From assembly GCA_028286685.1 (NCBI GenBank), contig JAQBRA010000003.1, forward strand, positions 1-61,291: 61,291 nucleotides of DNA. Direction: 5' to 3'. The DNA comes from Candidatus Adlerbacteria bacterium. GTDB taxonomy: Bacteria; Patescibacteriota; Minisyncoccia; Phycocordibacterales; SBAW01. The notes beneath the pieces are model-generated. The model was not told the origin of the DNA, made no database searches, and saw nothing but the letters and a program-made list of their open reading frames with translations. Below, one piece after another: positions 824 through 27,971 of this stretch. Positions within the stretch are counted from its first letter, which is position 1. Each line of letters starts with the position of its first letter. Made by a program: the position numbers and the translations under genes.

Positions 824-836
824 TCCTGTTCTCGGA

Positions 837-1159: not shown

Positions 1160-1192
1160 CCCCGGCGCCAAGCGCGCCGGGGTGCTTTTTTT
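1160..1192 (+). terminator. Strong intrinsic terminator
   Basis: A 9-bp GC stem, CCCCGGCGC (1160-1168) / GCGCCGGGG (1174-1182), has loop CAAGC and is followed by TGCTTTTTTT. Confidence 0.8.
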
Positions 1193-1201
1193 GCTGTTTT
1201 T

Positions 1202-1210
1202 TGGTAGTAT
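1202..1210 (+). promoter_or_regulatory. Extended -10-like element (TGgTAGTAT) upstream of tRNA-Ile
   Basis: TG at 1202-1203 and TAGTAT at 1205-1210, immediately after the terminator T-tract. The same TAGTAT hexamer recurs upstream of other genes (23220, 31879, 58484). Confidence 0.4.
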
Positions 1211-1232
1211 GGCCAAGTGTTTTTAGGTTCCC

Positions 1233-1255
1233 TGAAGGCTATCTGATAGCCTTCA
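1233..1255 (+). other. Perfect 10-bp stem / 3-nt loop hairpin in the tRNA-Ile leader
   Basis: TGAAGGCTAT-CTG-ATAGCCTTCA lies 10 nt upstream of the tRNA 5' end. It may be a processing or structural element. Confidence 0.55.
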
Positions 1256-1265
1256 ATTCACACAT

Positions 1266-1338
1266 GCGCGCTTAGCTCAGTTGGTAGAGCATTCGACTGA
1301 TACTCGAAAGGTCCTTGGTTCGATCCCAAGAGCGCGCA
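1266..1338 (+). tRNA. tRNA-Ile (anticodon GAU)
   Basis: Cloverleaf read by eye. Acceptor GCGCGCT/AGCGCGC, D-arm GCTC-AGTTGGTA-GAGC, anticodon stem TTCGA/TCGAA with loop CTGATAC, T-arm CTTGG-TTCGATC-CCAAG, discriminator A. No encoded CCA. Confidence 0.93.
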
Positions 1339-1412
1339 CACGTTGTCAAAAAGAGACCGGAGCGGGAGTAGAAAGTACAGACCATATTCACTTCGACGGC
1401 GCATACTGGTCT

Positions 1413-5127: not shown

Positions 5128-6621
5128 ATGCAAGCAATCAAAAACTTCCTCAGCTACCTCAACAGCTTCTCCCGTCGCAGCAAAATAATCGCTGCGGCTG
5201 TTTTGGTCGTGGCCCTGATCGTCCTGACTCACTTGGGCGGCTCTGAGGCGCCCGTTGAAGGAGCTTCCACGCTGCCGCACGTCGAGATTGCATCCGTCGC
5301 CAGCCTCTCCGATAGCGGGGCGCCGCTGCCGGTCGTCGGCCGTGTCACCTCAGTGAGTCAGGCAAACATCACCGCAATCGGCGGCGGCCAAATCACCAGC
5401 CTGCCGGCCAAGCTCGGCAACCGCGTAGCCGCCGGCTCCATCTTGGCCAGCTTCGAGAACTCCAGCCAGCGCGCCGCCGTGCTCCAGGCCCAGGGTTCTT
5501 ACGATGCCGCGGTTGCCTCCCAGCAGTCGGTCTCTCCGGAAGACTCCCGCACTGCGGCCGTAAATGCCTACCGCTCGGCTTTTACCACGCTCGACACCGT
5601 GCTTGAGTCCCAGATAGACACGTTCTTCGGCGCTCCGGGCCCCTACGGCCCGCAGCTCCTCATAGACGCGCCTAACTACGATTATGGCGAGCTTTCGCGC
5701 GACCGCGCCGCCATAACCCAGACTATGCAGGCGTACCGCAGCCAGCTTGCCAGCGCCGATGCTGCCGACCCGGCGGCCCTTTTGGCCGAGGCGCAGCGCG
5801 TTACGCAAGAGGTTTCCGATTTCATAACTAAGCTTGCTGTCGCCGCAAACCGCCGCGAGTCGCGTGCCTCCGAGGACCAGCTGGCCGCGCTTAACGCCGC
5901 CCGCGCAAGCGTCAACTCGCTCAGCGCTACGCTCACGACCGCAGCCCAGTCTTACCGCTCCGGTTCGGTCGGCTCGACCGCCTCGACTGACGCTTCCATT
6001 ACCATTGCGCTCGGCGGCCTGCGCGCCGCCCAGGCAAGCCTCGAGAAGACCTACGTCCGCGCGCCAATCTCGGGCACTATAGTGAGCCTCCCCGTACACT
6101 TGGGCGACAACATCTCGCCGGGCGCTCAGGTAGCAATCATTTCCAATCCCGGCGCGCTTCAGATAGAGGCGTATGTCACACCGCAAGACGCTAAGACTTT
6201 GGCCGTGGGCGGCAAGGCTACGGTCGAGGGAACTATTCCGGCCACTATCGTCTTCGTTGCTCCTGCACTCGATCCGACAACCGGCAAGATCCAGGTCAAA
6301 CTCGGCTTCTCCGGCGATGCCAGCGCTCTCTCGGATGGCAGCTCGGTTTCCGTTACGCTTAACCGCTCGGCAGCCGGCGCGACCCAGAAGGCAACACAAA
6401 AGTCCGTCCCCACCATCCCGATTGCCGCCGCCAAAATCACTCCGGAGGGCCCGGTCGTCTTTACGGTCGCCTCCAGCACCTTGGTCGCGCACCCGGTTAC
6501 GTTCGGCGCAATCGTCGGCGGCCAGGTCGCCATCACCTTGGGTCTCACGCTCGACATGGACATAGTCATTGATGCGCGCGGACTCTCCGAGGGTCAGCAA
6601 GTGGTAGTAGACTCTAACTAG
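5128..6621 (+). CDS. Efflux RND periplasmic adaptor (HlyD/membrane fusion protein family)
   Basis: N-terminal TM anchor and long Ala-rich coiled-coil. Beta-barrel motif YVRAPISGTIVSLPVHLGDNISPGAQVAII. Sits immediately upstream of the RND pump. Confidence 0.8.
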   Translation: MQAIKNFLSYLNSFSRRSKIIAAAVLVVALIVLTHLGGSEAPVEGASTLPHVEIASVASLSDSGAPLPVVGRVTSVSQANITAIGGGQITSLPAKLGNRVAAGSILASFENSSQRAAVLQAQGSYDAAVASQQSVSPEDSRTAAVNAYRSAFTTLDTVLESQIDTFFGAPGPYGPQLLIDAPNYDYGELSRDRAAITQTMQAYRSQLASADAADPAALLAEAQRVTQEVSDFITKLAVAANRRESRASEDQLAALNAARASVNSLSATLTTAAQSYRSGSVGSTASTDASITIALGGLRAAQASLEKTYVRAPISGTIVSLPVHLGDNISPGAQVAIISNPGALQIEAYVTPQDAKTLAVGGKATVEGTIPATIVFVAPALDPTTGKIQVKLGFSGDASALSDGSSVSVTLNRSAAGATQKATQKSVPTIPIAAAKITPEGPVVFTVASSTLVAHPVTFGAIVGGQVAITLGLTLDMDIVIDARGLSEGQQVVVDSN

Positions 6622-6624
6622 CCT

Positions 6625-9600
6625 ATGCTTTGGCTCTGGAACTTCTTTTTAGAACGCCGCCAGCTCAGCTACGTACTTATCGTGGTGCTGCTTGTCGCGG
6701 GTGCCTACGCGGTCATCCGCATCCCTAAGGAAAATACGCCGCAGATCGACCTGGCAATAGCGGTAGTAACCGCGTCCTTGCCGGGCGCCTCGGCCGAGGA
6801 CATGGAGTCCCTGGTTACCAATAAATTAGAGGCTCAGATTTCCGGCGTCTCCAACATCGACACGCTTACTTCAAGTTCCGGCGACGGCATGTCCGTCATT
6901 ACGGTGCAGTTTACGGCCCAGGCCGATACCGACCAGTCCATCCAGGACCTGCGCGACGCGGTATCGCGCGCCCGCGCCAACCTGCCGGGCGATGTCGAAT
7001 CCCCGCAGGTAACCAAAATCAACTTTTCAGACCAGCCTATTATCGCCGTATCCATTTCCGGCGAGCGCACGCCTCTGGAGTTCTCCCGGCTCGGGACCGA
7101 CCTCCAAGACCAGCTCCTTAACATTTCCGGCGTCTCGCAGGTGCAGATCTCGGGTGTCCCCGAGCGCGAGGTCTCCGTCATTGTCCGCAAGGAGGCGCTC
7201 GAGCAGTACGGCTTGCGCGTTACCGACGTCATCCAGGCAATTTCTTCCGCTAATGCCGCGCTGCCTGCCGGCCGCATTTCCATGGACGGCGTCAGCTACA
7301 ACGTCAACTTCAAGGGCGGCATCACCGATCCCAGCCAGCTCCAAGATATCGCCATTTCCTCGACCGAAGGCGTCCCGGTATACCTGCGCGACATCGCCGA
7401 CATCCAAGACGGCCTCGCGGCCGCCACCACTTACTCGCGTGTCTCCCTGCACGGCGAGCCCAGCCGCGACGGCATCACGCTCCTTATTTACAAGCAGTCC
7501 TCGGCCGGCATCCAAGACACCGCCGAGCGCGTGGGCGGGTATCTCAAAGAATTACAAAGCACCACGCTCTCGGGCCTCGACGTGTTTGTCCCGCCTTCGA
7601 CCGACCAGGGCGTCCAGGTTAAAGAGCAGTTGGGTGACCTGACGGAAACGGGCCTCATTACCGTAGTCCTCGTCATCCTGGTGCTCTTGGTTACCATCGG
7701 CTGGCGCGAGTCGGTCGTCGCGGGCTTGGCTATACCGCTGTCGTTCCTCATCGCGTTTATCGGCCTCTACTTTACGGGCAACACGCTTAACTTCATCAGC
7801 CTCTTTGCGCTCATCTTGGCCGTGGGCATATTGGTCGACTCCGGCATCGTCGTAACCGAGGCTATCCATGCCCGCCTCAAGCACTACCCGACGCCGGTGC
7901 TTGCCGCCAAGGCGGCGCTCCACGACTACGCCTGGCCGCTCATCGCGGGCACCATGGCCACGGTCGCCGTGTTCGCGCCGCTTTTCTTCCTGACCGGCAT
8001 CATCGGTAAGTTCATCTCGGGCATCCCGTACACGCTCATTTTCGTGCTCATTGCCTCTATTTTCGTAGCGCTCGGCATCGTGCCCCTTATCGCAGTCCTC
8101 TTTACCAAGGGCGCTCCCAATCGGATGGAGCAAAAGCAGGAGGAGTACACCGCGGCGGTTACCAGCTGGTACACAAAGAAGCTGCGCGTGATACTCGAGC
8201 ATCGCCGCTACCAGAATATTTTCCTGACTGGGCTCTTTATCGCGATGATAGGCGCCTTTATGCTGCCGGTATTCGGGCTTGTGGGTGCCACCTTCTTCCC
8301 GAGCGGGGACACCGACTACGTCTATCTCAACCTGCAGAAGCCGCAGGGCACCGTCTTGGAGCAAACCGATCTTACTGTGCGCGAAGTCGAGGAAATCCTC
8401 TATAGCGACGAGGACGTTGACTCGTTCCAGACGACCGTGGGCGCCAGCTCCGCGCTCACGGGCGCGGGGACTTCCGGCTCCAACCAGGCCAACATCACCA
8501 TCAACCTCCACGAGGATCGCAAAAAGACCAGCGCTCAAATCGGGACCGAGCTCCAAGCCGCGCTGGCGGGAGTAAAGGGCGCCGATATCCAGGTACTGCA
8601 GGCCTCCGACGGCCCTCCTTCCGGCGCGCCTATCTTTATAGAATTCATAGGCGACGACCTGGGCGCACTCATAACCGCAGCCGACCGCGGCAAGCAGCTC
8701 CTCTCGTCCATGCCGAATGTGACTAATATTACCGCCACGACCCAGGCCAACGGCACCGAGTTTAACCTAGCAATTGATCGCGCCAAGGCCGCCTCCTTGG
8801 GGCTCAACACCAGCCTGGTGGGGCAGACCCTGCGCGCCGCTATCAACGGCACCAAGGCCACGAGCATCACGCAGAACAAGGAAAATATCGACGTGGTGGT
8901 AAAGCTCAACCTCAATCCGGCCTACACCGGCCCGGGCGACACCGCGCAAACCACTATCGACAGCATCAAGAACCTCGCAGTTGAGGGTGCGTCGGGCAAC
9001 ACGGTGCTGCTCGGCTCGGTGCTCAAGGATACGCTGGGCCTCAGCTCTGCCGCGATCGCGCATAAGGAAAAGAACCGCATCCAGACCGTATCCGCATATC
9101 CCGACGCCAGCACCAACGCGGCGGCCGTGGTCGCCGAGTTCCAAAAGAGGGAAGGGGAACTTAATCTGCAAGAGGGTGTCAGGGTTTCCTACGGCGGCGA
9201 GGCCGAGAGCATCAACGAGTCGTTTACGCAGATGTTCGTGGCGCTCCTCGCCGGCCTCGTCCTGATGTTCCTCATCCTCGTCATCTCCTTCAATTCCATC
9301 CGCTACACGTTCTACCTGCTCTACATCGTGCCACTCTCTCTCATCGGCGTTCTTGGCGGCTTGGCCCTCACGGGGCAGTCGCTGTCGTTTACCTCGCTCT
9401 TGGGCATCATCGGACTTGGCGGCGTCATCATCAACCATGCCATCATTCTCATGGATTCGCTGATCCACAACATGCACGCAAGCCCCGACAAGCCGATGAT
9501 CGACGTGGTCTTGGAGTCCGCGGAGAAGCGCTTCCGCCCCATCTTGCTTACGACTATTGCGACCGCCATCGGCATGATCCCGCTCGCGCTCTCCAATCCC

Positions 9601-9714
9601 ACCTGGGGCCCCTTCGCCTTTACCGTCATGTTCGGCCTTATCTTCGCTATCTGTCTGACCCTGGTAGTAGTCCCGGTCCTCTTCTTCCGCGCACCGCATC
9701 ACAAGTCTCAATAA
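6625..9714 (+). CDS. RND efflux transporter, AcrB/AcrD/AcrF (HAE1-like) family
   Basis: 1029 aa with a 12-TM/two-large-loop layout. Typical blocks include IPKENTPQIDL, ALILAVGILVDSGIVVTEAI and GLGGVIINHAIILMD. Confidence 0.92.
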   Translation: MLWLWNFFLERRQLSYVLIVVLLVAGAYAVIRIPKENTPQIDLAIAVVTASLPGASAEDMESLVTNKLEAQISGVSNIDTLTSSSGDGMSVITVQFTAQADTDQSIQDLRDAVSRARANLPGDVESPQVTKINFSDQPIIAVSISGERTPLEFSRLGTDLQDQLLNISGVSQVQISGVPEREVSVIVRKEALEQYGLRVTDVIQAISSANAALPAGRISMDGVSYNVNFKGGITDPSQLQDIAISSTEGVPVYLRDIADIQDGLAAATTYSRVSLHGEPSRDGITLLIYKQSSAGIQDTAERVGGYLKELQSTTLSGLDVFVPPSTDQGVQVKEQLGDLTETGLITVVLVILVLLVTIGWRESVVAGLAIPLSFLIAFIGLYFTGNTLNFISLFALILAVGILVDSGIVVTEAIHARLKHYPTPVLAAKAALHDYAWPLIAGTMATVAVFAPLFFLTGIIGKFISGIPYTLIFVLIASIFVALGIVPLIAVLFTKGAPNRMEQKQEEYTAAVTSWYTKKLRVILEHRRYQNIFLTGLFIAMIGAFMLPVFGLVGATFFPSGDTDYVYLNLQKPQGTVLEQTDLTVREVEEILYSDEDVDSFQTTVGASSALTGAGTSGSNQANITINLHEDRKKTSAQIGTELQAALAGVKGADIQVLQASDGPPSGAPIFIEFIGDDLGALITAADRGKQLLSSMPNVTNITATTQANGTEFNLAIDRAKAASLGLNTSLVGQTLRAAINGTKATSITQNKENIDVVVKLNLNPAYTGPGDTAQTTIDSIKNLAVEGASGNTVLLGSVLKDTLGLSSAAIAHKEKNRIQTVSAYPDASTNAAAVVAEFQKREGELNLQEGVRVSYGGEAESINESFTQMFVALLAGLVLMFLILVISFNSIRYTFYLLYIVPLSLIGVLGGLALTGQSLSFTSLLGIIGLGGVIINHAIILMDSLIHNMHASPDKPMIDVVLESAEKRFRPILLTTIATAIGMIPLALSNPTWGPFAFTVMFGLIFAICLTLVVVPVLFFRAPHHKSQ

Positions 9715-14390: not shown

Positions 14391-15146
14391 TTACTCCTTC
14401 TTAAACCCCTCAAGCGCCTTCAAAAGCTCCATGGGCACCGTAAATACGACGGTGTTGGACTGGTCTGATGAGATATCGTTGATGCTTTGCAGGGTTCGCA
14501 GGTGGAGCGCTCCGGGCGACGCAGAAAGCACCCGTGCCGCCTCGGCCATGTTCTGCGATGCGGCCAGCTCGCCCTCGGAGGTTATGATGACCGCGCGCTT
14601 CTCGCGCTCGGCCTCGGCCTGCTTGGCAATCGTGCGCTCCATATTTTCCGGCAGCGACACGTCCTTCAGCTCCACGTTGTGGACCTTAAGCCCCCAGGCG
14701 GTCGTCTCCTTGTCGACAATCTCCTTAATGCGGTCGGCAATCTTGTCGCGGCTGGCCAAGAGCTCGTCGAGCGTTACTTCGCCCACGATGTTGCGCATGG
14801 TGGTCTGCGCGTACTGAGATATCGCGTACATAAAGTCCTCGATCTGGAGCACCGCCGCCTCGGCGGAGAATACGCTGTAATAGATAACGGCGTTGACGTT
14901 GACCGACACGTTGTCGCGGGTGATCGCCTTCTGGTCGGGAACATCCACGGCCTTCATGCGCATGTCCACCTTCTTGTGGAACTGGATAATGGGCCAGATA
15001 AGCCGCCAGCCAGGCTCCATGATCCCGGTATATTTCCCGAACGTAAACCGCACGCCCCGCTCGTACTGGTTTACCTGCCTGATGCTGATAAGGACGATAA
15101 GCGCCGCGACTGCGAGCACGGTCCACAAAATATACATAGGTTCCAT
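14391..15146 (-). CDS. SPFH/Band-7 (stomatin/slipin-like) membrane protein
   Basis: N-terminal TM followed by an SPFH core (YERGVRFTFGKY..., PDQKAITRDNVSVNVNAVIYY, AEAEREKRAVIITSEGE). The start is set at the internal ATG 15146. Confidence 0.88.
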   Translation of the reverse strand: MEPMYILWTVLAVAALIVLISIRQVNQYERGVRFTFGKYTGIMEPGWRLIWPIIQFHKKVDMRMKAVDVPDQKAITRDNVSVNVNAVIYYSVFSAEAAVLQIEDFMYAISQYAQTTMRNIVGEVTLDELLASRDKIADRIKEIVDKETTAWGLKVHNVELKDVSLPENMERTIAKQAEAEREKRAVIITSEGELAASQNMAEAARVLSASPGALHLRTLQSINDISSDQSNTVVFTVPMELLKALEGFKKE

Positions 15147-15294
15147 ATCGATAAAGCTAGCGGGTAAAGCTAAGGGTAGTATGAAGAAAGTGGGGGAGAT
15201 GCGCATCTCGGAGAAGTTTCCGTATTCTTTACATGTAGCAACTTTTGTTTTATATTCAAGCCAGATTCATCGGTTCCCAATGAAGGAGAAAGCT

Positions 15295-15900
15295 ATGCGG
15301 CTCGTGCAACCGATTGGCATTCCTGTCATGTCCCAAACCCCGCCGTCTCAGAAGGTGGTGCGGTATTACGAAAGCCAGCTTGAAAGGCTGACCGATACAT
15401 TACTAACCGGGCTTACCGGCGCTATGGCGTACTCCAAGCTTAATCAGCTTAAAAGCCTAGTACTCAGTGCGGCAACCAATTGGCCGGTCGCCCGCAACAA
15501 GATGCTGTTCGTTCCGGTCGTTCCGCTGGCATTTTTCGGCCAAAAGACCCTGAGGGTGATGCATCCTGAAGCGCATATGACTATGGGCTTCGAGGATATC
15601 CATACCAGGGTCGAGGTGGGCGCAAGTCCGTATTGGCTGGTCAACTTGCCGGAGGAAAGCATGCTCCGCATTTGGCATCTCAGTCTTGGCTGCTACAAGG
15701 TTACCTCTCATCCGCGGGAGTTTACCGCCGCCGAGCTTGTTGCAATAGCGACGCATAAAATCCATTTGCTTGGGATTGCAGGCATGAAGGCGTATGCCTC
15801 AACCTGCGGTGCCAGCGGACACCCGTGGTTGAGGTGTCATAACGGCGTCCCGCAGCTTACGGCGAACAACGAGCAGGTGGGCGGGTCAGTCCCGTTCTAA
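15295..15900 (+). CDS. Hypothetical protein
   Basis: ATG 15295 is preceded by AAGGAG (15283-15288). The upstream part of ORF 14893..15900 is antisense to the SPFH gene and is rejected. A terminator follows at 15910. Confidence 0.45.
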   Translation: MRLVQPIGIPVMSQTPPSQKVVRYYESQLERLTDTLLTGLTGAMAYSKLNQLKSLVLSAATNWPVARNKMLFVPVVPLAFFGQKTLRVMHPEAHMTMGFEDIHTRVEVGASPYWLVNLPEESMLRIWHLSLGCYKVTSHPREFTAAELVAIATHKIHLLGIAGMKAYASTCGASGHPWLRCHNGVPQLTANNEQVGGSVPF

Positions 15901-15909
15901 AGAAAAGTC

Positions 15910-15937
15910 AAAGGCCCCGCATCTGCGGGGCCTTTTT
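15910..15937. terminator. Bidirectional intrinsic terminator
   Basis: AAAGGCCCCGC-ATCT-GCGGGGCCTTT lies between convergent genes. Confidence 0.85.
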
Positions 15938-15944
15938 GTATAGT

Positions 15945-16637
15945 TTAATCCGTGCGGCCTTTTTCTTTTAGCAGTTGCAGGTCGCGCGACCAGGCTAATC
16001 CATCATGCCACTCAAGCGGCGCAAAATTGGTTTTGTACAGCGCTTTTGTGTCATACACCGTACCCAGGTAGTAATGCTCGAACCCTGCAGCTGCTGCGTC
16101 GCGGATACAATCAAGCATCATCCACAGTCCCAAAGACTGCTGTGCCAGGGACAGGTCGTAGGCGGAAAACCAGTAGTGCCGCATGCGGCCGCTCTGCGCC
16201 TCTAGCGCGTACCCGACGACTTTCATGCCTTGCCTATATTCGACTATAGTCGACACGACTCCCGGCTGCATCCAAAGCTCGATGCGTGCACGCGGGGCGA
16301 CATTGGGCCCGTGCCGCTGCGCAAAGTAGGCGGTCATAAATGCATAAAACCCCTCGTCGGCATCAAAGTCGCTAAGCGGTATGCGCCGCTTTTGAAACTG
16401 CCCGTCAAATTTCTTTGCAATGCGGCGGTTCTCGCTGTTCGGGCTAAACTCCGGCAGCGCAACCCGCGCGCTGCGCGTACTATAAAAAATACCCTGCAAT
16501 CCGCGTGTAGAGGAATAGGGGAGATATCCCTGCTCGTATAGCTCTTCTAGATTTTCTTCGTCGCGTTCAATGTAGCGCGTCTCTGGCCGGTCAATGTAGG
16601 AGTCAAAGTCAGGTGTAGGTGCTGCAGCGGTTCTCAT
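15945..16637 (-). CDS. Aminoacyl-tRNA-protein transferase-like protein (ATE/Bpt family, ATE_C-type; Cys motifs of ATE_N absent)
   Basis: The C-terminal pattern SLGLWMMLDCIRDAAAAGFEHYYLGTVYDTKALYKTNFAPLEWHDG..W parallels the Bpt/ATE1 C-domain. SPNSENRRIAKKF parallels the PS.SQRR block. Last gene of the mpl operon. Confidence 0.65.
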   Translation of the reverse strand: MRTAAAPTPDFDSYIDRPETRYIERDEENLEELYEQGYLPYSSTRGLQGIFYSTRSARVALPEFSPNSENRRIAKKFDGQFQKRRIPLSDFDADEGFYAFMTAYFAQRHGPNVAPRARIELWMQPGVVSTIVEYRQGMKVVGYALEAQSGRMRHYWFSAYDLSLAQQSLGLWMMLDCIRDAAAAGFEHYYLGTVYDTKALYKTNFAPLEWHDGLAWSRDLQLLKEKGRTD

Positions 16638-16639
16638 AT

Positions 16640-17539
16640 TTATTGTCCCAATTCAAACAATCCTACTCCTAAGGCAATCATTACTATGGCTGCTACTTGT
16701 ATGGCGTTCACCTCGGTCTTTTTTTGGGGGAATAGGAGAAAAAGTCCGAGCAGGAATACGCTTTGCGCGCCGCTTATGGAACTTGCATATGCTGCGACAG
16801 GCGCTAAGGCGATAGCAAAGTTTAGCAGCACAAACGACGCTTGGGACAATGACTCATTTACCACGCTAAATCCTAAAAACATCCTGCCTTGATGCTTAAT
16901 GCGATACATAAGTCCTTCGCGATATTGTCGTACGGCGATTAAGAGTATCAAGCCGAGTATCGTGACTCCAGCGTACTGCCAAAATGAGACCGCTCCGACA
17001 TTGTGCGTCATGTCTGATGCTGTGCGCACCATGTACTGGCAAATACTCCACACTAGAGTTACTCCTGCAAGTACGCCGAGAAGTCTAGAGGGTATGCTCC
17101 ACTCAAATTTGCCTACATCAAGCAGGTATGCGCCAACGATAAGCAGTGCTATTCCGGCAACGCCGAGCAGGGTAATATCCTGCCCGGTTGCAACTGCAAC
17201 CATGAGGAGCCATATGGAGGTAAGTTGAAAGAGCGGTACGACCTGGTAGACCGGGTACGTATTGAGCAGGTAAAAGTACGCCGTCCACATAAAAACCATG
17301 GGTATTGCCGAGAGAAGGGAGATTGTCAAAGGGAGTGCCTCCATATGCACGTCACCGACAACAAGCTTGAGAACGCAAACGCCTATGACGCTCAATAGTG
17401 TGGATATGAGTATGAGTCCGCCAATACGCTTATGGATATTGGAGTCCGACGATACCGAGTTGTGCTGCGTCAAATACTCGTCCAGGTAATTGACGAGAGC
17501 GAGGAGAAACACGCCCCCAAGTGCTGATAAAAGCCACAT
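16640..17539 (-). CDS. DMT/EamA-like 10-TM permease
   Basis: 299 aa with two 5-TM halves, each ending in a Gly-rich helix (GVAGIALLIVGAYLL; AAIVMIALGVGLFEL). Lies 3 nt from both neighbours. GC is lower than the flanks by eye. Confidence 0.6.
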   Translation of the reverse strand: MWLLSALGGVFLLALVNYLDEYLTQHNSVSSDSNIHKRIGGLILISTLLSVIGVCVLKLVVGDVHMEALPLTISLLSAIPMVFMWTAYFYLLNTYPVYQVVPLFQLTSIWLLMVAVATGQDITLLGVAGIALLIVGAYLLDVGKFEWSIPSRLLGVLAGVTLVWSICQYMVRTASDMTHNVGAVSFWQYAGVTILGLILLIAVRQYREGLMYRIKHQGRMFLGFSVVNESLSQASFVLLNFAIALAPVAAYASSISGAQSVFLLGLFLLFPQKKTEVNAIQVAAIVMIALGVGLFELGQ

Positions 17540-17542
17540 ATA

Positions 17543-18967
17543 TTAATTAAGCGGAAACTTTTCCTCTACCGCAGGCGGGAGCGATTTGATAAGCCCGCCC
17601 AGCTCGCCCGAGGTCAGCAGCAGGATTGCGTCCTGCTCGGCAGTGTCAGCCAAAATAGTTTGCAAGTCCTCGGCGCTGTGTATCGCCACTGTGTCCATGC
17701 CCGCGGCGCGCACGCGCTCAACGATCTCATCCTGCGTCAGCTGCGCATGGGTTGTGGCTCCCTGAGCCGCCGGCTCGTATATATAGACGCGGTCAGCGCC
17801 GTCAAAGACGGTATCGTACTGCGCAAGCGCAGCTTTGTTGCGCCAGGTAAAGGTATGCGGCTCAAACACCACAACCAGGCGCCGGGCAGGGAAGTGCAAT
17901 CGCATGGCCGCAATGGCAGATAGTGCTTTCTCGTGGCTACTGCCGAATCCTTCCAAGACCGGCACCAATGACCGGGGTGAGAGGAGCTCCATGCGGCGCT
18001 TTACACCCTCAAAGCTTGCCACTCCGGCCGCTAGCTCCTCCGGCGTCAATAAATGCTTCTCCAGCAAGAGTGCGCTAATACCCACGATATTCTCGACATT
18101 GTGCGCGCCCAGCTGGGTGGTCGAAAGGGTCGCGACTTTCTTTCCTTGATGCATCAAGTCAAAGGTCGTCGGCAGGCCGTAAGCGATATTGGCCGCATGC
18201 CACTCGTTGCGTTCATGCAAACCGTACTGCACCTTTTTGCCGGCAAAATCCTCGGCCAGCTTGCGCGCGAAGGGCTCGTCATTTACCACCAGCACGCCGT
18301 CTTGGGGCAGCATGCCCATAAGCGCGCGGAAGGGCTTTAAATAATCCTCGTGGGTAGGGTAGACGTTGACGTGGTCGTGCGTCGCCGCGGTCAGCAAGAC
18401 GTTGCGCGGGTTGTAGTGCAAAAATTTGGACCGGTCGTCCCAGTTGGCCGAGGGGTACTCGTCGCCCTCAAGCACGAACGCCGCTCCTTGCCCCAAGTGC
18501 GCATGCGCCGCAAAGCCCCGGGCAATCTCGCCCACAAAGTAGCTCGGGTCCTTGCCGGCATGCATCAGGCACCAGCTCAGGAGTGCCGTGCAGGTCGACT
18601 TGCCATAGCTTCCGGCGACGACCAGCGTTTCCTTACCGCTCGAGAGCTCTTCCAAAATATCGGCAAATGATTTGATGGGCAGGCCCGAATCAAAAGCCGC
18701 CTTAACCTCCTCGTTGCTCTCCGGGACCAGCTTGGCGTTCTTGCCGATTACTATAAGTGTTGCATCTGTGGGGATGTTTTCTTTTTTGTAGCCATGGGCA
18801 AACGCAATGCCCGCCTGCTCCAGGTAGTCAGACACCGGCGGATAAAAGCCCTCATCCGAGCCGCTGATCTCCCAGCCCGCTTCGCGCAACAGCAAGGCTA
18901 CGGCCGACATGCCCTTTCCGGCGATACCTATAAAATGCGCTTTTTTCGATGCCATACGGGCTATCAT
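17543..18967 (-). CDS. mpl: UDP-N-acetylmuramate:L-Ala-gamma-D-Glu-meso-DAP ligase (Mpl-type Mur ligase)
   Basis: HFIGIAGKGMSAVALLLREAGWEISGSDEGFYPPVSDYL and EGDEYPSANWDDRSKFLHYNPR match my recollection of E. coli Mpl (ANVYPPMSTLL; EADEYDCAFFDKRSKFVHYCPR) better than MurC. Confidence 0.85.
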   Translation of the reverse strand: MIARMASKKAHFIGIAGKGMSAVALLLREAGWEISGSDEGFYPPVSDYLEQAGIAFAHGYKKENIPTDATLIVIGKNAKLVPESNEEVKAAFDSGLPIKSFADILEELSSGKETLVVAGSYGKSTCTALLSWCLMHAGKDPSYFVGEIARGFAAHAHLGQGAAFVLEGDEYPSANWDDRSKFLHYNPRNVLLTAATHDHVNVYPTHEDYLKPFRALMGMLPQDGVLVVNDEPFARKLAEDFAGKKVQYGLHERNEWHAANIAYGLPTTFDLMHQGKKVATLSTTQLGAHNVENIVGISALLLEKHLLTPEELAAGVASFEGVKRRMELLSPRSLVPVLEGFGSSHEKALSAIAAMRLHFPARRLVVVFEPHTFTWRNKAALAQYDTVFDGADRVYIYEPAAQGATTHAQLTQDEIVERVRAAGMDTVAIHSAEDLQTILADTAEQDAILLLTSGELGGLIKSLPPAVEEKFPLN

Positions 18968-19310: not shown

Positions 19311-19341
19311 AGAGCTTCCGATAATCCGGAAGCTCTTTTTA
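19311..19341. terminator. Bidirectional hairpin terminator
   Basis: AGAGCTTCCG-ATAATC-CGGAAGCTCT plus a T-tract. It overlaps the murA stop codon. Confidence 0.7.
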
Positions 19342-20619
19342 TATTCCAACCCGCTCGATCTGCATCCCGATTGCGCGCAGGCGCTCGGCGATATTCTCGT
19401 ATCCGCGGTCTATGTGGTGGATGTTGCTGATTTCTGAGGTGCCGTCGGCTACGGCGGCGGCCACCAGGTAAGCCAAGCCCGCGCGTATATCCGGGCTCTC
19501 CATTTTCTTTCCCACCAGCCGGCGGGCTCCGTGTATCAGCACGCGGTGCGGGTCCATGGTCACAATATCAGCACCCATCACCCGCAATACCTCGACAAAC
19601 GCCAGGCGGTTGTCCCAAATAGTCTCAAATACGCGGCTCTCGCCTGTAACCTGGGTCAAAAGGGTAACCATAGGCGCCATGAGGTCGGTAGGGTAGCCCG
19701 GATATTCGTGCGTCTTTATATAGGCAGGGCGCAGCGCAGGGGTTGCCCTCACGCGCAAAAAATCAGGACCAGCTTCAATATCAGCGCCCATGGTGCGCAG
19801 CGTATGCAGCACGGCCTCCAGGTGCCCGGGCACGCACTGCTCAATCAGCAAATCTTTTGCGGCAAGTACGCCCAGCAGCAAAAAGCTGCCGGCTTCAATC
19901 CGGTCGGGTACGACCGCAAAGGGTTCTGCTGGCGCACGCAGCAATTCCTCTGTGCCGACAATAGTTATGGTCGGCGTGCCCGCGCCCGAAATCTGCGCGC
20001 CCGAGGCGTTAAGCAGGTCGGCAAGCCACACGATCTCGGGCTCTAAGGCCGCATTCTTTATAGTCGTGGTGCCGTCGGCCAGGACGGCAGCAAGCATTGC
20101 GGTCTCTGTCCCGGTTACCGACTGGATCCTAAAAAACAGCTCGGCGCCCTTCAGTCGTCCGCCGGGCACGCGCACGCCGTAGCTGCCGTCTTCTTTAACT
20201 ACCTTGGCGCCCATTTTTTCAAACGTCTCCAAAAACAAATCAATGGGCCGCTCGCCGATAATGTCGCCGCCCGGGTGGCTAAACAGCACTTCGCCGAAGC
20301 GCGCAAGCAAGGGTCCGGCCAAAACGATAGAGGCGCGCAGGGTGCTCATCATGGCGGCCGGTATGTGCGAGCCGCTCATGCCGCTCGTTGTCATATTTAA
20401 GGCGTCGCCGCTGCGGCTGGTGTTGCCGCCCAAAGCCTCCAGTATCTGCGCCATGCTCGCCACGTCGGCTATCGCCGGAACGTTGGTAAGCGCCAGCGGC
20501 GTGCGGTACAGCACGGAAGCGGCCATGGCCTTTAGTACCGCATTCTTAGCGCCCGCGGTCCGTATTGAGCCCTCAAGCGTGGGGGCGGCCGAGCCCGTAA
20601 TGCGGAATAGTTCTTGCAT
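19339..20619 (-). CDS. murA: UDP-N-acetylglucosamine 1-carboxyvinyltransferase
   Basis: 426 aa with typical motifs GAKNAVLKAMAASVL and the YPGYPTDLMAP block. Confidence 0.93.
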   Translation of the reverse strand: MQELFRITGSAAPTLEGSIRTAGAKNAVLKAMAASVLYRTPLALTNVPAIADVASMAQILEALGGNTSRSGDALNMTTSGMSGSHIPAAMMSTLRASIVLAGPLLARFGEVLFSHPGGDIIGERPIDLFLETFEKMGAKVVKEDGSYGVRVPGGRLKGAELFFRIQSVTGTETAMLAAVLADGTTTIKNAALEPEIVWLADLLNASGAQISGAGTPTITIVGTEELLRAPAEPFAVVPDRIEAGSFLLLGVLAAKDLLIEQCVPGHLEAVLHTLRTMGADIEAGPDFLRVRATPALRPAYIKTHEYPGYPTDLMAPMVTLLTQVTGESRVFETIWDNRLAFVEVLRVMGADIVTMDPHRVLIHGARRLVGKKMESPDIRAGLAYLVAAAVADGTSEISNIHHIDRGYENIAERLRAIGMQIERVGI

Positions 20620-20648: not shown

Positions 20649-21566
20649 ATGGATCTACGCGCCAAAGTCGCCCTTGCGCCCTATACGACGTTTGCCTTAG
20701 GCGGGCCGGCCGCGCTCTTTTTGGAGGCACAGGCGCCGGGGGATATAAAGGAGGCGTACGCGCTGGCAAAACAGAAGGGCTTACCGGTGGTGGTGCTCGG
20801 CGGCGGGAGCAACGTGGTCGTGCCCGACGAGGGCCTTAATGCACTGGTGCTGCGCATTACAACTCAAGGCATAGGGCGCGAGGGCAGCACGCTGCGCTGC
20901 GCCGCAGGCGAGCCGCTTCTGGGGTTAGTTAAGTACGCGGCCGGGCAAGGCTTGGGCGGTCTTGAGCCGCTGGCGGGCATACCGGGTACGGTCGGCGGCG
21001 CGGTGCGTGGCAATGCAGGCGCCTTCGGCGTAGAAATTAAAGATGTATTAGTCTCGGCCCGCGCGCTTGATACGGAAACCGGCGAGGAAAAAGTATTTGC
21101 CAAAAGCGAGTGCGATTTTAGCTACCGCTCCAGCTTCTTCAAGCGGCACCCGCAGCTTATCGTGCTCGAGGCCGAGCTTGCGCTTGCGCCCGCCGACCCG
21201 ATGCAGGCGGACGCCAAAATAATGCACACGCTCGCCGAGCGCCATAAGCGCCATATCCAAGATATAAGATCGGCCGGCTCGTTCTTTAAAAATCCGGTCG
21301 TCTCTGTCGATCTTCAAAAATTGTTTAAGCAAGACAAAAGCCAAGAGTCCAAAGAGGGCAGGGTGCCGGCGGGCTGGCTTATGGATCGCGCGGGCCTGCG
21401 CGGTGCGCGCGTGGGAGGGGCCGTGGCAAGCGAATATCACACCAACTACTTCTTAAACGCCGGGGACGCCACTGCCGCTCAAGTGAAAGAGCTGGCCGCG
21501 CTGGCTAAAGAAAAAGTCTTCAAAGAGTTCGGCGTTACGCTCGAAGAGGAAGCGGTGATTTTATAA
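20649..21566 (+). CDS. murB: UDP-N-acetylenolpyruvoylglucosamine reductase
   Basis: FAD-binding N-domain (LGGGSNVVVPDEG, GIPGTVGGAVRGNAGAFG) and MurB C-domain (GSFFKNP, AGWLMDRAGL). Confidence 0.9.
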   Translation: MDLRAKVALAPYTTFALGGPAALFLEAQAPGDIKEAYALAKQKGLPVVVLGGGSNVVVPDEGLNALVLRITTQGIGREGSTLRCAAGEPLLGLVKYAAGQGLGGLEPLAGIPGTVGGAVRGNAGAFGVEIKDVLVSARALDTETGEEKVFAKSECDFSYRSSFFKRHPQLIVLEAELALAPADPMQADAKIMHTLAERHKRHIQDIRSAGSFFKNPVVSVDLQKLFKQDKSQESKEGRVPAGWLMDRAGLRGARVGGAVASEYHTNYFLNAGDATAAQVKELAALAKEKVFKEFGVTLEEEAVIL

Positions 21567-21603: not shown

Positions 21604-22461
21604 TCAGGTGTGCCGCACGATTGCCGCCAAGTAGCGGCCGCCGCCGTTGCGCGTGGTGGGCAGTTCGTCCGCCAAGTAGGCATGCTCGAGGTTTATCTGC
21701 TCGCTGGGCACCCCCAGCTCGGCAAACTGCGCTTTGATGATGGTAGGAACATTGATGTATATTCCTTTCTCGTCGACCCAGCCGCATGCGTCGCCATACT
21801 CTTGCGGCAACATATCTGCCGCCGGCACGTTGTACTTCAGGTGCTCGGGGTCCTCGTCGGCAAGCTTATGGAGAAAGTCCTTCGGCTTGATCGAATAAAA
21901 GACCCAGACCCGCAGGTGCCGGCGCAGGTACTGCGCCGGCGCAAGCGCGCTGACGATGCTGTTGACCACGCTCTCGTGGTGCCGCCCTCGCTTGTGGTTG
22001 CGCGTCTTGATGCGCTCCCGGTCGATGACGCAATCGCGTCCCGCGTGCGCAAATATCATTTCATGGCGCAGCGTTACGGCGATCATACTGCAGCCTCCGG
22101 CACTGAAGATGCCGGCGGTTTTCGGGCCGGGGAGCCAAGTGCCGTCCGCAGGCGCTTGCGCGTTGCGATAAAGCACGGACTTCCAGAGCGGGATCGTTTC
22201 CCCCATTGCGATAGGGTAGATGATCTTGCCGTTGAACTTCACCGGGCTCGGGGCGTACGCGTACTGTGCACCAAGCCCATGAAGCGCTTGGCCGACGCGC
22301 ATAGCTAAGTCGGGGTTCTTGTCCTCGTCGCCCGCCTTCTGCAGCGGGGCCAGGGACCAGTTGCGGCCTTCAAAGCATGCCGCAGAAAAGGTCGGCCCTC
22401 CCGGTACGGCAATCTTATTGCGTACCAGGGGCTTTACTTCCTCCAGTAAATCTAAGGCCAT
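21604..22461 (-). CDS. Hypothetical protein with distant YfiH/PgeF (DUF152, Cu-oxidase_4 fold)-like motif order
   Basis: ATG 22461 is preceded by AAGGAGGAGG (complement of 22465-22474). The motif order SAGGCSMIAV...IFAHAGRDC...YSIKP...LGVPSEQI...TTRNGGGRYLAAIV parallels TADC...HAGWRG...GP.I...GV...RR..GR of YfiH. The family assignment is low confidence. Confidence 0.55.
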   Translation of the reverse strand: MALDLLEEVKPLVRNKIAVPGGPTFSAACFEGRNWSLAPLQKAGDEDKNPDLAMRVGQALHGLGAQYAYAPSPVKFNGKIIYPIAMGETIPLWKSVLYRNAQAPADGTWLPGPKTAGIFSAGGCSMIAVTLRHEMIFAHAGRDCVIDRERIKTRNHKRGRHHESVVNSIVSALAPAQYLRRHLRVWVFYSIKPKDFLHKLADEDPEHLKYNVPAADMLPQEYGDACGWVDEKGIYINVPTIIKAQFAELGVPSEQINLEHAYLADELPTTRNGGGRYLAAIVRHT

Positions 22462-22544
22462 GGCCTCCTCCTTGGGTGAACGGTATCTAAAAATAAAATA
22501 ACATACTTTACGAGTTATGTAAAATGCGTTACTATGCAATTCTT

Positions 22545-23222
22545 ATGACCCGCCTCTCCATTGTGGCCACCCCCATAGGCAATCTCGAGGATATTACCCT
22601 GCGCGCTCTGCGTATTCTTAAGGAGGCCGACATTGTTGCGTGCGAGGACACCCGCGTTACCAAAAAGCTCCTGTCGCATTTTGATATCCATGTGCCGACC
22701 GTTTCATTCCATGCCAATTCGGGCCAATCAGGTTTCGACAAGATCATAAAGCTCCTGGAGGAGGGGAAGAATGTCGCGCTTGTTTCAGACGCAGGGACGC
22801 CCGGGGTGTCAGACCCGGGACTCGAGCTGGTATCCCAAGTGCGCGAGAAGCTGCCCGACATAAAGATAGAAACCATACCGGGCGCCTCATCGCTTACGGC
22901 GGCGCTTGCGGTCGCGGGCCTGCGCGTCCCCTCGTTCGTTTTTTACGGATTCTTGCCGCAAAAGAAGGGCCGCGAGACTTTGTTTAAGGAAATTGCAGGT
23001 AGTGAGCGCGCCAGCATATTTCTGGAGTCGCCGCACCGGATTATGAAGGCGCTTGAGTCGCTCAACAAAGCGTGCCCCGAGCGCCGCATAGGCCTCTTCC
23101 GCGAGCTGACCAAGATGTTTGAGGAGCATTTGATCGGCACGCCGGCTGAATTGCTCATAAAAATGGAGCAAGACCCCAACCATCAGCGCGGCGAATTTGT
23201 CGTAATAGTAGAGGGGGAGTAG
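22545..23222 (+). CDS. rsmI: 16S rRNA (cytidine1402-2'-O)-methyltransferase
   Basis: LSIVATPIGNLEDITLRALRILKEADIVACEDTR and DAGTPGVSDPG are typical RsmI/tetrapyrrole-methylase-fold motifs. Confidence 0.9.
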   Translation: MTRLSIVATPIGNLEDITLRALRILKEADIVACEDTRVTKKLLSHFDIHVPTVSFHANSGQSGFDKIIKLLEEGKNVALVSDAGTPGVSDPGLELVSQVREKLPDIKIETIPGASSLTAALAVAGLRVPSFVFYGFLPQKKGRETLFKEIAGSERASIFLESPHRIMKALESLNKACPERRIGLFRELTKMFEEHLIGTPAELLIKMEQDPNHQRGEFVVIVEGE

Positions 23223-25686: not shown

Positions 25687-25860
25687 ATGGCTGAGAAAGT
25701 CGTAGTCCTTGCCGAGCGCAAGGGACACAAGCAGACGGCGCCGTTTGTGTCGTATGACGGCAACCCGGAAAACGGTGATTATGGAGCCTGGGCCAGGTAC
25801 GTTATGGGAAAGGAAGGCGAGGTAGTCTCGCTTAAGCCTAAAACGCCGAAAGAAATATGA
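25687..25860 (+). CDS. Hypothetical small protein (57 aa)
   Basis: AGGAGG (25674-25679) lies 7 nt upstream of ATG 25687. Confidence 0.45.
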   Translation: MAEKVVVLAERKGHKQTAPFVSYDGNPENGDYGAWARYVMGKEGEVVSLKPKTPKEI

Positions 25861-25901
25861 GCCGCAGTCCCGCCACATGGCGGGGCTTCCTGTTGCCCAA
25901 T

Positions 25902-25909
25902 GGTATAAT
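25902..25909 (+). promoter_or_regulatory. Extended -10 element TGgTATAAT
   Basis: A consensus TATAAT (25904-25909) with upstream TG lies 7 nt before ATG 25917, which predicts a leaderless mRNA. Confidence 0.55.
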
Positions 25910-25916
25910 TAAGGCA

Positions 25917-27971
25917 ATGCTTGAGGACCAAAACAAGATAAACTACTTCGCCGAGACCAACTCCCGCGGCAAGCCGCTGGCGTTCGGCATCAAGCGCCGC
26001 GACCGGGGGCGCCACATGTACGTCATCGGCAAGACCGGCATGGGCAAGTCGACCCTGCTGGAGAACATGGCCATCCAGGACATCCGCAACGGCGAGGGCA
26101 TGGCCTTTATAGACCCGCACGGCTCTACCGCCGAGCGCATCATGGAGTACGTCCCGGCACACCGCATAAAAGACGTGGTGTACTTCGCCCCATTCGACAT
26201 CGAGCATCCAGTGGCATTCAACGTGATGGAGGACGTGGGCTACGACAAGCGCCACTTGGTAGTCTCTGGCCTCATGTCGGCGTTCCAAAAGATCTGGGAG
26301 GACGCCTGGAGTGCCCGCATGGAGTACATCCTCACTAACACGCTCCTGGCACTCCTGGAGTACGAGGGCGCGACCCTGCTCGACGTCAATCGTATGCTCT
26401 CCGGAACCTTTAAGAAAACCGGCTCGGGGATAGAGTCGGTCAAGGACTCGAACGCCTTCCGCTACAAGGTGGTGCAGAACATATCCGATCCCTTGGTAAA
26501 GAAATTCTGGGTTGATGAGTACTACGGATACACCGAGCGCTACATCCAGGAGGCGACTCCGGCAATCCAGAACAAGGTGGGGCAGTTCACCTCCAATCCG
26601 CTCATCCGCAATATTATAGGCCAAGCCAAATCCTCTTTCGATATCCGAGAGCTCATGGATCAGAAGAAGATACTCATAATCAACCTCTCCAAGGGTCGCG
26701 TGGGCGAGGTCAACACCAATCTTCTGGGCTCCATGCTCGTGACCAAGATCTACCTGGCAGCCATGTCGCGCGCCGACGTGTCGGCGGAGACGATGAAAAA
26801 CCTGCCCTCCTTCTACATCTACGTAGACGAGTTCCAAAACTTTGCCAATAAGAGCTTCGCCGACATCCTCTCAGAGGCCCGCAAGTACAAACTCAACCTC
26901 ATCATCGCGCACCAGTACGTTGAGCAGATGGAGGAAGAGGTGCGCGACGCGGTCTTCGGCAACGTGGGTACCACGGTGTCCTTCCGCGTGGGGCCGTTTG
27001 ATGCCGAAACCTTAGAGACCGTGTTCGCGCCGCAATTCGAGGCGGCCGACTTGGTCAACCTCGGCTTCGCGCAAATCTACCTCACGCTCATGATAGACGG
27101 GGTAGGGAGTCCGCCGTTCTCCGCGACGACGCTCCCGCCGTTTGACCCTTCGCCCGAAGACAATACGAAAGCGGTGCTTGCCGCCTCGCGCGAGCAGTTT
27201 GCCAAGGCCCGCGCCGAGGTCGAGGCTGATGTAGCCCGGTGGCAGAATTCCGAGATGGTTGCAGCCGAGCCTCCCAAGCCCAAGTACGGCACGTTCAAGC
27301 CTTCCACGGCCTCGCACTCCGCGCCAGCAGCTCCGCGACCTGCTGCTTCTTTCGACAGACCGCAAGACCGGCCCGCAGCAGTAGTGGTACAGGTCCCCGT
27401 AGCGCCCGCGCCTTCAGTAGTGCAGGCGGTCAGGGTAGAGGCACCAGCGCCCCAGCCGGCCCCAACAGTGCACGTCCACGCGCCGGTGCATGTGCCGCCA
27501 GCCCAGATCCATATACATCAGGCTCCGGAGCGTGCCCCGCGTCCCGCGCCCAAGGCCTGGGTTGCACCGGTGGCCCCAAAGCCCAAGCCAGCACCCGCAG
27601 CTTCCGTGCCGCGCCCAGAGCCTCCGGCGCCGCCCCTAGAGGGAGCTACCAGTTTGCGCGACGCCTTGGCAGCCGTTACCAAAAGGGCCGAGCCTGCCCC
27701 CGTGCCGGCCCCTAAAGAGTCCCAAAAGCCCTCAGGGCAGGCTAAATCGGCTCCGGTACATCAGCCGCACCACGACGCTCTCAAAGAGACTTTGCACCGG
27801 GTAGCACCCAAGGCTGAGGCTCCTGCATCGCCAGCCACTGGGGATAACATGAAGACCACATCTGCCGCCAGTGTAAAATCAAGCCATCACGCAAGCCCTC
27901 CTGCAGGACTTCCTCCGGAGGTTTTGCGCGAGATGCTGGCAGTTGACGAGCTTGATGAGACCCGCGAGTAA
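25917..27971 (+). CDS. Type IV secretion coupling-protein-like (TraD/VirD4/TraG-D_C type) P-loop ATPase with ~240-aa Pro/Ala-rich C-terminal tail; no N-terminal TM segments
   Basis: Walker A VIGKTGMGKST and Walker B FYIYVDEFQNF. The block KYKLNLIIAHQYVEQM...GNVGTTVSFRVG is typical of the family. The tail is low-complexity (APAPQPAPTVHVHAPVHVPPAQIHIH...). Confidence 0.85.
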   Translation: MLEDQNKINYFAETNSRGKPLAFGIKRRDRGRHMYVIGKTGMGKSTLLENMAIQDIRNGEGMAFIDPHGSTAERIMEYVPAHRIKDVVYFAPFDIEHPVAFNVMEDVGYDKRHLVVSGLMSAFQKIWEDAWSARMEYILTNTLLALLEYEGATLLDVNRMLSGTFKKTGSGIESVKDSNAFRYKVVQNISDPLVKKFWVDEYYGYTERYIQEATPAIQNKVGQFTSNPLIRNIIGQAKSSFDIRELMDQKKILIINLSKGRVGEVNTNLLGSMLVTKIYLAAMSRADVSAETMKNLPSFYIYVDEFQNFANKSFADILSEARKYKLNLIIAHQYVEQMEEEVRDAVFGNVGTTVSFRVGPFDAETLETVFAPQFEAADLVNLGFAQIYLTLMIDGVGSPPFSATTLPPFDPSPEDNTKAVLAASREQFAKARAEVEADVARWQNSEMVAAEPPKPKYGTFKPSTASHSAPAAPRPAASFDRPQDRPAAVVVQVPVAPAPSVVQAVRVEAPAPQPAPTVHVHAPVHVPPAQIHIHQAPERAPRPAPKAWVAPVAPKPKPAPAASVPRPEPPAPPLEGATSLRDALAAVTKRAEPAPVPAPKESQKPSGQAKSAPVHQPHHDALKETLHRVAPKAEAPASPATGDNMKTTSAASVKSSHHASPPAGLPPEVLREMLAVDELDETRE

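Follow-up and report, generated by a model that had tools for sequence, protein, structure and literature searches.

A conserved pairing of a MurC/Mpl-family ligase with an ATE-like protein of predicted aminoacyl-tRNA-transferase fold in Parcubacteria/Paceibacteria

Why should a gene resembling those of aminoacyl-tRNA-protein transferases lie so close to that of a ligase of cell-wall synthesis? This question is raised by a stretch of 61,291 nucleotides from a soil Patescibacteria genome, that of Candidatus Adlerbacteria (assembly GCA_028286685.1, contig JAQBRA010000003.1, positions 1–61,291 of the forward strand; the whole stretch is called the window here), in which genes for a MurC/Mpl-family UDP-MurNAc (UDP-bound N-acetylmuramic acid) ligase, a permease and an ATE-like protein follow one another closely on the minus strand. 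The original prediction, made from the letters of this DNA, saw in the three genes a salvage-and-modify module for cell-wall peptides, with import by the permease, ligation to UDP-MurNAc by an Mpl enzyme and tRNA-dependent aminoacylation by the ATE-like protein. Our analysis of related loci and predicted structures suggests another composition: a two- to three-gene cytoplasmic peptidoglycan-precursor module formed by a PgeF-like hydrolase, the ligase and the ATE-like transferase, in which the transferase would acylate an intermediate of the stem peptide. We regard this reading as standing about an even chance of being right.

How firmly are the ligase and the transferase tied to each other? 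A scan of one genome per species gave 80 loci with relatives of the ATE-like gene, each covering about 7 kb on either side. Nearly all of them come from Parcubacteria/Paceibacteria (Adler-, Nomura-, Kaiser-, Zambryski-, Jorgensen-, Yanofsky-, Wolfe-, Campbell- and Lloydbacteria and Minisyncoccia), and a few from Bacteroidota and Acidobacteriota. Among the 60 patescibacterial-type loci with at least 1.5 kb of upstream sequence, 47 have the ligase as the immediate upstream gene on the same strand, and 50 have it no further than 1.2 kb away; its stop overlaps the start of the transferase by 4 nt in 24 of these loci, and the gap or overlap between the two is at most 15 nt in 42. The downstream neighbour of the ATE-like gene belongs to 43 families among 62 loci. 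The flanks have been reshuffled many times while the pair was kept together, and its adjacency has outlasted a swap of the gene order (L030) as well as insertions (the window, L058 and L069). The reciprocal comparison, starting from seven ligase homologues on long contigs, showed that in four of the five patescibacterial cases the ATE-like gene comes directly downstream and overlaps the ligase by 4 nt, and no ligase–transferase fusion was present among the best 120 matches of either family. The linkage that had been noticed in a single genome is thus strongly conserved, and translationally coupled, across Parcubacteria/Paceibacteria. It also appears to be as novel as was supposed: open-access papers and bioRxiv yielded no account of a Mur ligase coupled to an ATE-type protein, nor of the PgeF-like family or the ligase subtype treated below. 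In two unrelated loci (L058:2045–2407, and L069 between 6347 and 6920), the gene inserted between ligase and transferase encodes a PF05635 protein, of the small four-helix bundle family named '23S rRNA intervening sequence protein'.

In loci that lack this adjacency, the ATE-like gene lies beside alanine racemase (L028, L040 and L074), a sugar-1-phosphate nucleotidyltransferase (L040, L061, L066 and L074), an NanE/AmgK-like kinase fusion (L066 and L068) or a class IV aminotransferase (L013–L015 and L017), and at L085 it is followed by glutamate racemase. Outside the phylum, homologues adjoin an S13 DD-carboxypeptidase (L080), lie two genes from murB (L078) or stand 1 kb from a stand-alone Mpl-like ligase (L079). 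In two Flavobacteriales loci, an aspartyl-tRNA synthetase gene is immediately upstream on the same strand (L076:5159–6901 and L077:5173–6921), which could be either a pointer to the donor tRNA or a coincidence.

Does the permease belong to this unit? The window protein has about 10 hydrophobic segments and no direct Pfam or NCBIfam match; 27 of 30 relatives found in an exhaustive search match EamA (PF00892), and we name it an EamA/DMT-type transporter on this likeness. No homologue was detected at E 1e-5 in any of the 80 loci with ATE-like genes, including the nearest relative, L029, whose ligase is 84% identical and which shares the gene order from murB to a fasciclin gene; in the alignment with L029, about 34 bp stand in place of the permease gene. 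Furthermore, the G+C content at third codon positions of this gene (0.54) falls below that of its neighbours (0.62–0.79). The permease is a recent, window-specific insertion between the ligase and the ATE-like gene, and we rejected it as a member of the module, as it is absent from 80 of 80 related loci and an outlier in composition. Because it is missing from all of them, the import step of the original prediction loses its conserved basis. The ATE-like gene of L029 (L029:7001–7694) is read in two frames (7001–7243 and 7236–7691), by a frameshift or an assembly error.

What kind of enzyme is the ATE-like protein? Pfam recognises ATE_C (PF04377) over residues 100–210 at 31.9 bits (cutoff 25), along with Acetyltransf_6 at 42.4 bits, and gives no match to ATE_N (PF04376) or to FemABX (PF02388). 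Public names for the family are 'arginyl-tRNA-protein transferase' or 'GNAT family N-acetyltransferase'. In Ate1 of the klAte1 structure, the ATE_N domain holds a C4 zinc finger formed by C23, C26, C95 and C96, and the catalytic Tyr-Lys pair is Y303-K304, a Tyr/Phe-Lys pair being catalytic in both Ate1 and FemX (PMC9351520). The lone cysteine of the window protein is C177, and an alignment of 75 homologues contains no conserved cysteine within the first 100 residues, in agreement with the predicted loss of the ATE_N cysteine motifs. Conserved in at least 97% of these 75 sequences are Y201-K202 (within KALYKTNF), the helix S68-E69-N70-R71-R72, and R55 and R58; the match of Y201-K202 to the catalytic pair of Ate1 rests on motif rather than on superposition, and the basic SENRR helix seems suited to tRNA binding.

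PDB sequence searches with the single sequence and with a family profile returned no match for the ATE-like protein, so that it, like the PgeF-like protein, could be resolved only by structure prediction followed by a fold search. An AlphaFold (AF2) model built from 20 homologues (pLDDT 92.8, pTM 0.90) has one GNAT (GCN5-related N-acetyltransferase) core and a small N-domain. All of the 50 top Foldseek matches listed, out of 79 at E <= 0.001, are aminoacyl-tRNA-dependent transferases: the best is ATE1 (E 4e-9, TMq ~0.65), followed by FemX (E ~2e-6), MprF/aaPGS, L/F-transferase (LFTR) and Sba18. On this predicted structure, the protein belongs to the aminoacyl-tRNA transferase fold class; both its ATE_C-like identity and its proposed kinship with FemX and L/F-transferase agree with the original prediction, the latter two ranking behind ATE1.

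Could it, then, simply be a divergent Bpt-type N-degron writer acting on protein N-termini, with its position after the ligase reflecting the packing of operons in a reduced genome or a degradation control of the cell-wall enzyme? We think this unlikely, while giving it more weight than the two further rivals discussed below. The protein resembles Bpt/ATE1 (PF04376 + PF04377) in having ATE1 as its best structural match, in passing the ATE_C threshold, in its Bpt-like size, in a Tyr-Lys pair set in a KxLYKxxFxPxE-type motif and in a basic helix; the alignment to the arginyltransferase models spans residues 55–218, the conserved R55 and R58 could form a basic pocket that reads acidic N-termini as in Ate1 and Bpt, and a ClpS-AAA fusion lies beside a ligase homologue in one locus (L089). 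It differs from Bpt/ATE1, however, in the missing ATE_N match and zinc-finger cysteines, in being operonic with a Mur ligase, and in its score of only about 50 bits against NCBIfam arginyltransferase equivalog models whose cutoffs range from 170 to 358 (best 49.8 against a cutoff of 267); the homologues from Bacteroidota and Acidobacteriota (37–50 bits) likewise fall far short. Nor does packing alone lead one to expect that a single neighbour is selectively kept while the others vary.

The degradation machinery of such a pathway points the same way. With E. coli ClpS, ClpA and Aat as queries, nothing beyond a ClpB-type gene was found in the window or 87 loci, a weak negative because it covers the window and loci rather than whole genomes; to that extent, the earlier remark that ClpS/ClpAP is not seen here holds. 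The Clp_N-bearing AAA+ protein of the window (~1.4–4.1 kb) is 47% identical to E. coli ClpB and 38% identical to E. coli ClpA and has no IGL/IGF ClpP-docking loop; being ClpB-type, it was rejected as an N-degron unfoldase.

A third partner, unnoticed in the original prediction, brings the pair closer to peptidoglycan synthesis. The product of the gene at 21604–22461 is 'hypothetical' in every source name returned, has no Pfam (PF02578 included) or NCBIfam match and found nothing in PDB sequence searches. Its AF2 model (pLDDT 94.3) matched 18 PDB chains in Foldseek at E <= 5e-8, all of them YfiH/PgeF (DUF152), with YfiH bound to UDP-MurNAc-L-Ser included; the next match had an E of 0.08. D106, C124 and H139 are invariant among 32 sequences and correspond to the Asp89-Cys107-His124 triad of E. 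coli YfiH (PMC8844914), with the Asp-to-Cys spacing being 18 residues in both proteins and hhalign aligning these motifs. The modelled fold, the invariant triad and its spacing identify the protein as a divergent PgeF/YfiH-like UDP-MurNAc-amino-acid hydrolase, which differs from PgeF/YfiH (PF02578) in being about 40 residues longer, in escaping the PF02578 model and in being linked to the ligase that it would proofread. PgeF strips L-Ser or Gly wrongly joined to UDP-MurNAc by MurC (PMC12280929). Of the 80 loci, about 26 have a member of the PgeF-like family close to the ligase or to the ATE-like gene; its usual place is immediately upstream of the ligase, and in some loci it is found downstream of the transferase. 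This makes it a recurrent third member; between it and the ligase, the window and L029 have murB and murA.

What does the ligase itself do? It carries the N, M and C domains of Mur ligases in Pfam, including the UDP-MurNAc-binding N-domain shared by Mpl (TIGR01081) and MurC (TIGR01082), and falls below both curated NCBIfam cutoffs (murC 252.3 bits against 335.1; mpl 219.3 against 388.7). It is nearer to E. coli Mpl than to E. coli MurC (186 against 122 bits), whereas its best PDB matches are MurC enzymes and its C domain is the more MurC-like (summed BLOSUM 117 against 79 for Mpl). Like Mpl, it has a YPPxS motif (YPPVS) and a 7-residue insertion ending in SKF (SANWDDRSKF) where the Mpl signature lies; the Mpl motif is (S/T)AFFDKRSK (Das et al. 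2011), and SANWDDRSK agrees with it at 6 of 9 positions, the sequence being variable within the ligase family. Like MurC, it has a PHxFT core in the C domain. The C-domain motifs EGFGSSHEK and FEPHTFTWRN (EGFGSS[Y/H]EK and FEPHTF[S/T]WRN across the family) nevertheless match neither enzyme: SS replaces the HH of (Y/F)(G/A)HHP, and FEPHTF[ST]WRN stands against PHRxxR in MurC and EPRSNT in Mpl. The FAHH and EPRSNT motifs of the Mpl C domain are not found, with FGSS(H/Y) and EPHTF(S/T) in their place, and the L-Ala-binding set of MurC (Tyr346, His348, His376, Arg377 and Arg380) is also not preserved, since F-G-S-S stands for Y-G-H-H and PHTFTWR, compared with PHRFTRTR, retains the His but loses both Arg, an Arg being present one position later. 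The public gene call of 455 aa would cut HFIGIAGKGMS, which homologues keep; hence the longer start giving 474 aa is the correct one. Public names are 'Mpl' (IMG) or 'Mur ligase domain-containing protein'.

From these motifs, we treat the ligase as a hybrid, a putative third MurC/Mpl subfamily whose N and M domains resemble Mpl, whose C domain resembles neither enzyme and which, unlike MurC and Mpl, is usually followed by an ATE-like gene. On the original label 'Mpl' the evidence is divided: the N and M domains and the closeness to E. coli Mpl favour it, and the C domain, the higher murC score and the neighbouring murA and murB do not. The context is on the side of MurC, as the ligase adjoins murA and murB and MurC products are the known substrates of PgeF, the relative of its recurrent partner. 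In cultivated members of the class, MurD or MurD2/MurL is present along with MurE and MurF, with one K01924 gene each, which may or may not be of the same subtype as the window ligase, and no K02558 (PMC10936435, supplements). We slightly favour the view that the ligase serves as the cell's MurC; that it joins peptides to UDP-MurNAc is clearly less probable, and the remaining chance falls to some other function. Two ligases 67% and 79% identical to that of the window, with the same unusual C-domain motifs, are found at L087:6001–7419 and L089:6001–7410, on contigs of 64–66% GC with non-patescibacterial gene content and no ATE-like or PgeF-like neighbour. Their neighbours are MetH, MTHFR, GST and DUF3551 in the former and a molybdopterin oxidoreductase, the ClpS-AAA fusion and an M14 peptidase in the latter, which looks like a cross-phylum transfer of the ligase alone. 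Such hosts are expected to own a MurC.

If peptides were the substrate of the ligase, the order of the two enzymes could be reversed. The ATE-like enzyme would then act upstream, building or repairing a short peptide from aminoacyl-tRNA, for instance through the transfer of L-Ala from Ala-tRNA onto a gamma-D-Glu-X fragment at its free alpha-amine, and the ligase would load the peptide onto UDP-MurNAc in a tRNA-dependent recycling shunt. The Mpl-type features of the ligase and its IMG name speak for this proposal, as do the stand-alone ligases, one of them beside the M14 peptidase, the D-amino-acid-forming enzymes that recur nearby, and the resemblance of a gamma-linked D-Glu N-terminus to the acidic N-terminal residue read by ATE/Bpt (PMC9351520). 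We nonetheless consider it improbable, given the C domain, the NCBIfam ranking, the stepwise pathway implied by MurD/MurD2, MurE, MurF and a single K01924 in cultivated relatives, the lack of a conserved importer and the lack of murein in some hosts. A dipeptide shunt bypassing both MurC and MurD was down-weighted as well, relatives having MurD or MurD2/MurL. Some members of the class parasitise methanogens, archaea without murein (PMC10936435), and together with the missing importer this speaks against salvage of host murein peptides as the general role of the module.

The reading that we prefer is the precursor module in which the transferase follows the ligase. The ligase would load UDP-MurNAc with the first residue (or possibly with a short peptide), and the PgeF-like enzyme would clear away products joined in error. 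Drawing on an aminoacyl-tRNA, the ATE-like enzyme would acylate a free amine of an intermediate of the stem peptide through a peptide bond. In its leading and simplest form, the last step would be Fem-like: a soluble UDP-MurNAc-peptide would receive a branch residue on its position-3 side chain, in the manner of Weissella FemX, from an enzyme whose scaffold, of the ATE/Bpt type, had lost its zinc finger. Weissella viridescens FemX (PF02388) shares with the ATE-like protein an aminoacyl-tRNA-dependent GNAT-type fold, is soluble and acts on the cytoplasmic UDP-MurNAc-pentapeptide, and the gene context suggests a similar reaction here. FemABX proteins differ from it in size (about 330–420 aa against 230 aa), in having two GNAT lobes instead of one core and in matching PF02388. 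The identities of the genes at the level of fold and family, their conserved coupling and their peptidoglycan context are observed; the tRNA dependence, the acceptor and the donor amino acid of the transferase are inferred.

Several points weigh against the precursor module. First, UDP-MurNAc-L-Ala, the product of MurC, has no free amine, and the coupling to this ligase rather than to MurE or MurF is thus mechanistically unexplained. Second, the ATE-like protein is nearest in fold and motifs to the protein-modifying ATE/Bpt enzymes and not to Fem, and a canonical FemAB in at least one genome of the class means that the Fem role is not necessarily vacant. Third, about one fifth of the patescibacterial loci lack the ligase adjacency, and the Flavobacteriales homologues adjoin aspartyl-tRNA synthetase rather than the ligase. 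Fourth, small streamlined genomes pack unrelated genes tightly, so that the overlap alone is weak evidence. Finally, the public runs containing the window sequence are DNA metagenomes only, with no RNA runs. The FemAB case can be taken either way, as an argument against a vacant Fem role or as a hint of complementary distribution. In a cultivated Yanofskyibacterium, PMX_810_sub_00540 is annotated as a canonical FemAB-family protein beside DivIB (PMC10936435, supplementary file 4), and the annotation rows listed for this genome, a bin that may be incomplete, include no other PF13480 and no PF01225 (MurC/Mpl-type) entry; judged from this annotation, Fem and the ligase–transferase pair could be alternatives.

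Might the acceptor lie outside the stem peptide altogether? It could be a lipid head group, as for MprF/aaPGS, a polysaccharide amine or a metabolite of the Sba18 type, with the link to the ligase reflecting only co-regulation of the envelope. MprF/aaPGS domains and Sba18 are among the structural matches, and the window is rich in envelope polysaccharide genes. The ATE-like protein, however, is soluble and small, without a membrane domain, and its conserved partner acts not on lipids or polysaccharides but as a cytoplasmic ligase of nucleotide precursors. We rate this proposal as low as the recycling shunt. The weights that we give to the four readings do not add up to certainty, and the rest is left to readings that we have not thought of.

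The layout of the region is given in Table 1. The ligase and permease are separated by 3 nt (TAA-tat-ATG), as originally stated for the three minus-strand reading frames, whereas the permease and the ATE-like gene are separated by 2 nt (TAA-at-ATG) and not by 3. The hairpin that was proposed to close the unit was read directly and also ranks first among the terminator-like sites of 15.2–22.7 kb in a scan; its stem of 11 bp includes 8 GC pairs, a T-rich tail follows it, and the A-run on its opposite side makes it potentially bidirectional. Since the scan detected no terminator between murA and the ligase, the unit may start at murA. Just past the terminator, a second window-specific insertion relative to L029 (15141–15954) carries a plus-strand reading frame within 14893–15900, with a probable start at about 15250, which converges on the ATE-like gene and has a good sigma-70-like site in front of it (15228–15256).

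Table 1. Positions in the window of the ligase–transferase unit and its neighbours.
Feature	Position	Strand	Basis
Intrinsic terminator	15910..15935	-	Stem arms GGCCCCGC and GCGGGGCC, loop AGAT, flanking A and T runs
ATE-like protein, predicted aminoacyl-tRNA-transferase fold, 230 aa	15945..16637	-	Pfam/NCBIfam, homologue alignment, AF2 model, Foldseek
EamA/DMT-type permease, 299 aa, ~10 transmembrane segments	16640..17539	-	Hydrophobic segments, EamA matches of relatives
MurC/Mpl-family UDP-MurNAc:amino-acid/peptide ligase, 474 aa	17543..18967	-	Mur ligase domains, motifs
murA (UDP-GlcNAc 1-carboxyvinyltransferase)	19339..20619	-, upstream of ligase	NCBIfam TIGR01072, 446 bits, above cutoff
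murB (UDP-N-acetylmuramate dehydrogenase)	20649..21566	+, divergent from murA	NCBIfam TIGR00179, 218 bits, above cutoff
PgeF/YfiH-like hydrolase (putative), 285 aa	21604..22461	-	Alignments, hhalign, AF2 model, Foldseek, Asp-Cys-His triad

Other parts of the window bear on the envelope and on genome organisation. Genes for RsmI, an ATPase resembling type IV secretion system coupling proteins and an LTD/PKD surface protein form a recurrent block (window 22524–23222 and 25857–27971; L084, L086, L088 and L090) that is divergent from the PgeF-like and ligase genes in many genomes of the class. A large envelope-glycan locus at 29471–52000 combines glycosyltransferases (at least six GT4 and two GT9) with two paralogues of asparagine synthase, an epimerase, a B12-radical SAM enzyme and several methyltransferases; a Wzx-like flippase (52595–53890) and a Wzy_C/TPR protein (58499–60742) also form part of it. 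Encoded at 5128–9714 are a membrane fusion protein of the HlyD type and an AcrB-type RND pump of full length (1029 aa), which are unexpected in a lineage thought to be single-membraned. At the start of the window (1–4133), the 3′ end of the 16S rRNA gene (1–230) is followed about 1 kb later by tRNA-Ile (1266–1339) and then directly by the gene for the ClpB-type disaggregase; as no 23S rRNA follows the 16S rRNA, the rRNA genes are unlinked here.

To our knowledge, tRNA-dependent steps of cell-wall synthesis are known only from FemABX/MurM enzymes, enzymes of the ATE/Bpt type are known only as protein N-degron writers, and the cell-wall chemistry of Patescibacteria has so far not been determined. 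The pairing described here suggests an undescribed tRNA-dependent step in the synthesis of the cell-wall peptide, and it adds a previously unannotated PgeF-like family and what we treat as a third MurC/Mpl subfamily. If the ATE-like enzyme instead built peptides for the ligase, ATP-dependent Mur ligases would not make the stem peptide alone: part of it would come from amino acids carried by tRNA, and the PgeF-like hydrolase would proofread what is made. Even if the ATE-like enzyme proved to be a conventional N-degron enzyme, the conservation of the operon would suggest that cell-wall synthesis is controlled by degradation. The ATE-like, ligase and PgeF-like proteins are all small, soluble and open to in vitro tests with substrates already available. 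If our preferred reading is true, an ATE-type enzyme without a zinc finger is coupled to a UDP-MurNAc ligase in a class of ultrasmall symbionts, which would join the fields of N-degrons and of the cell wall and provide a first handle on the cell-wall chemistry of Patescibacteria.

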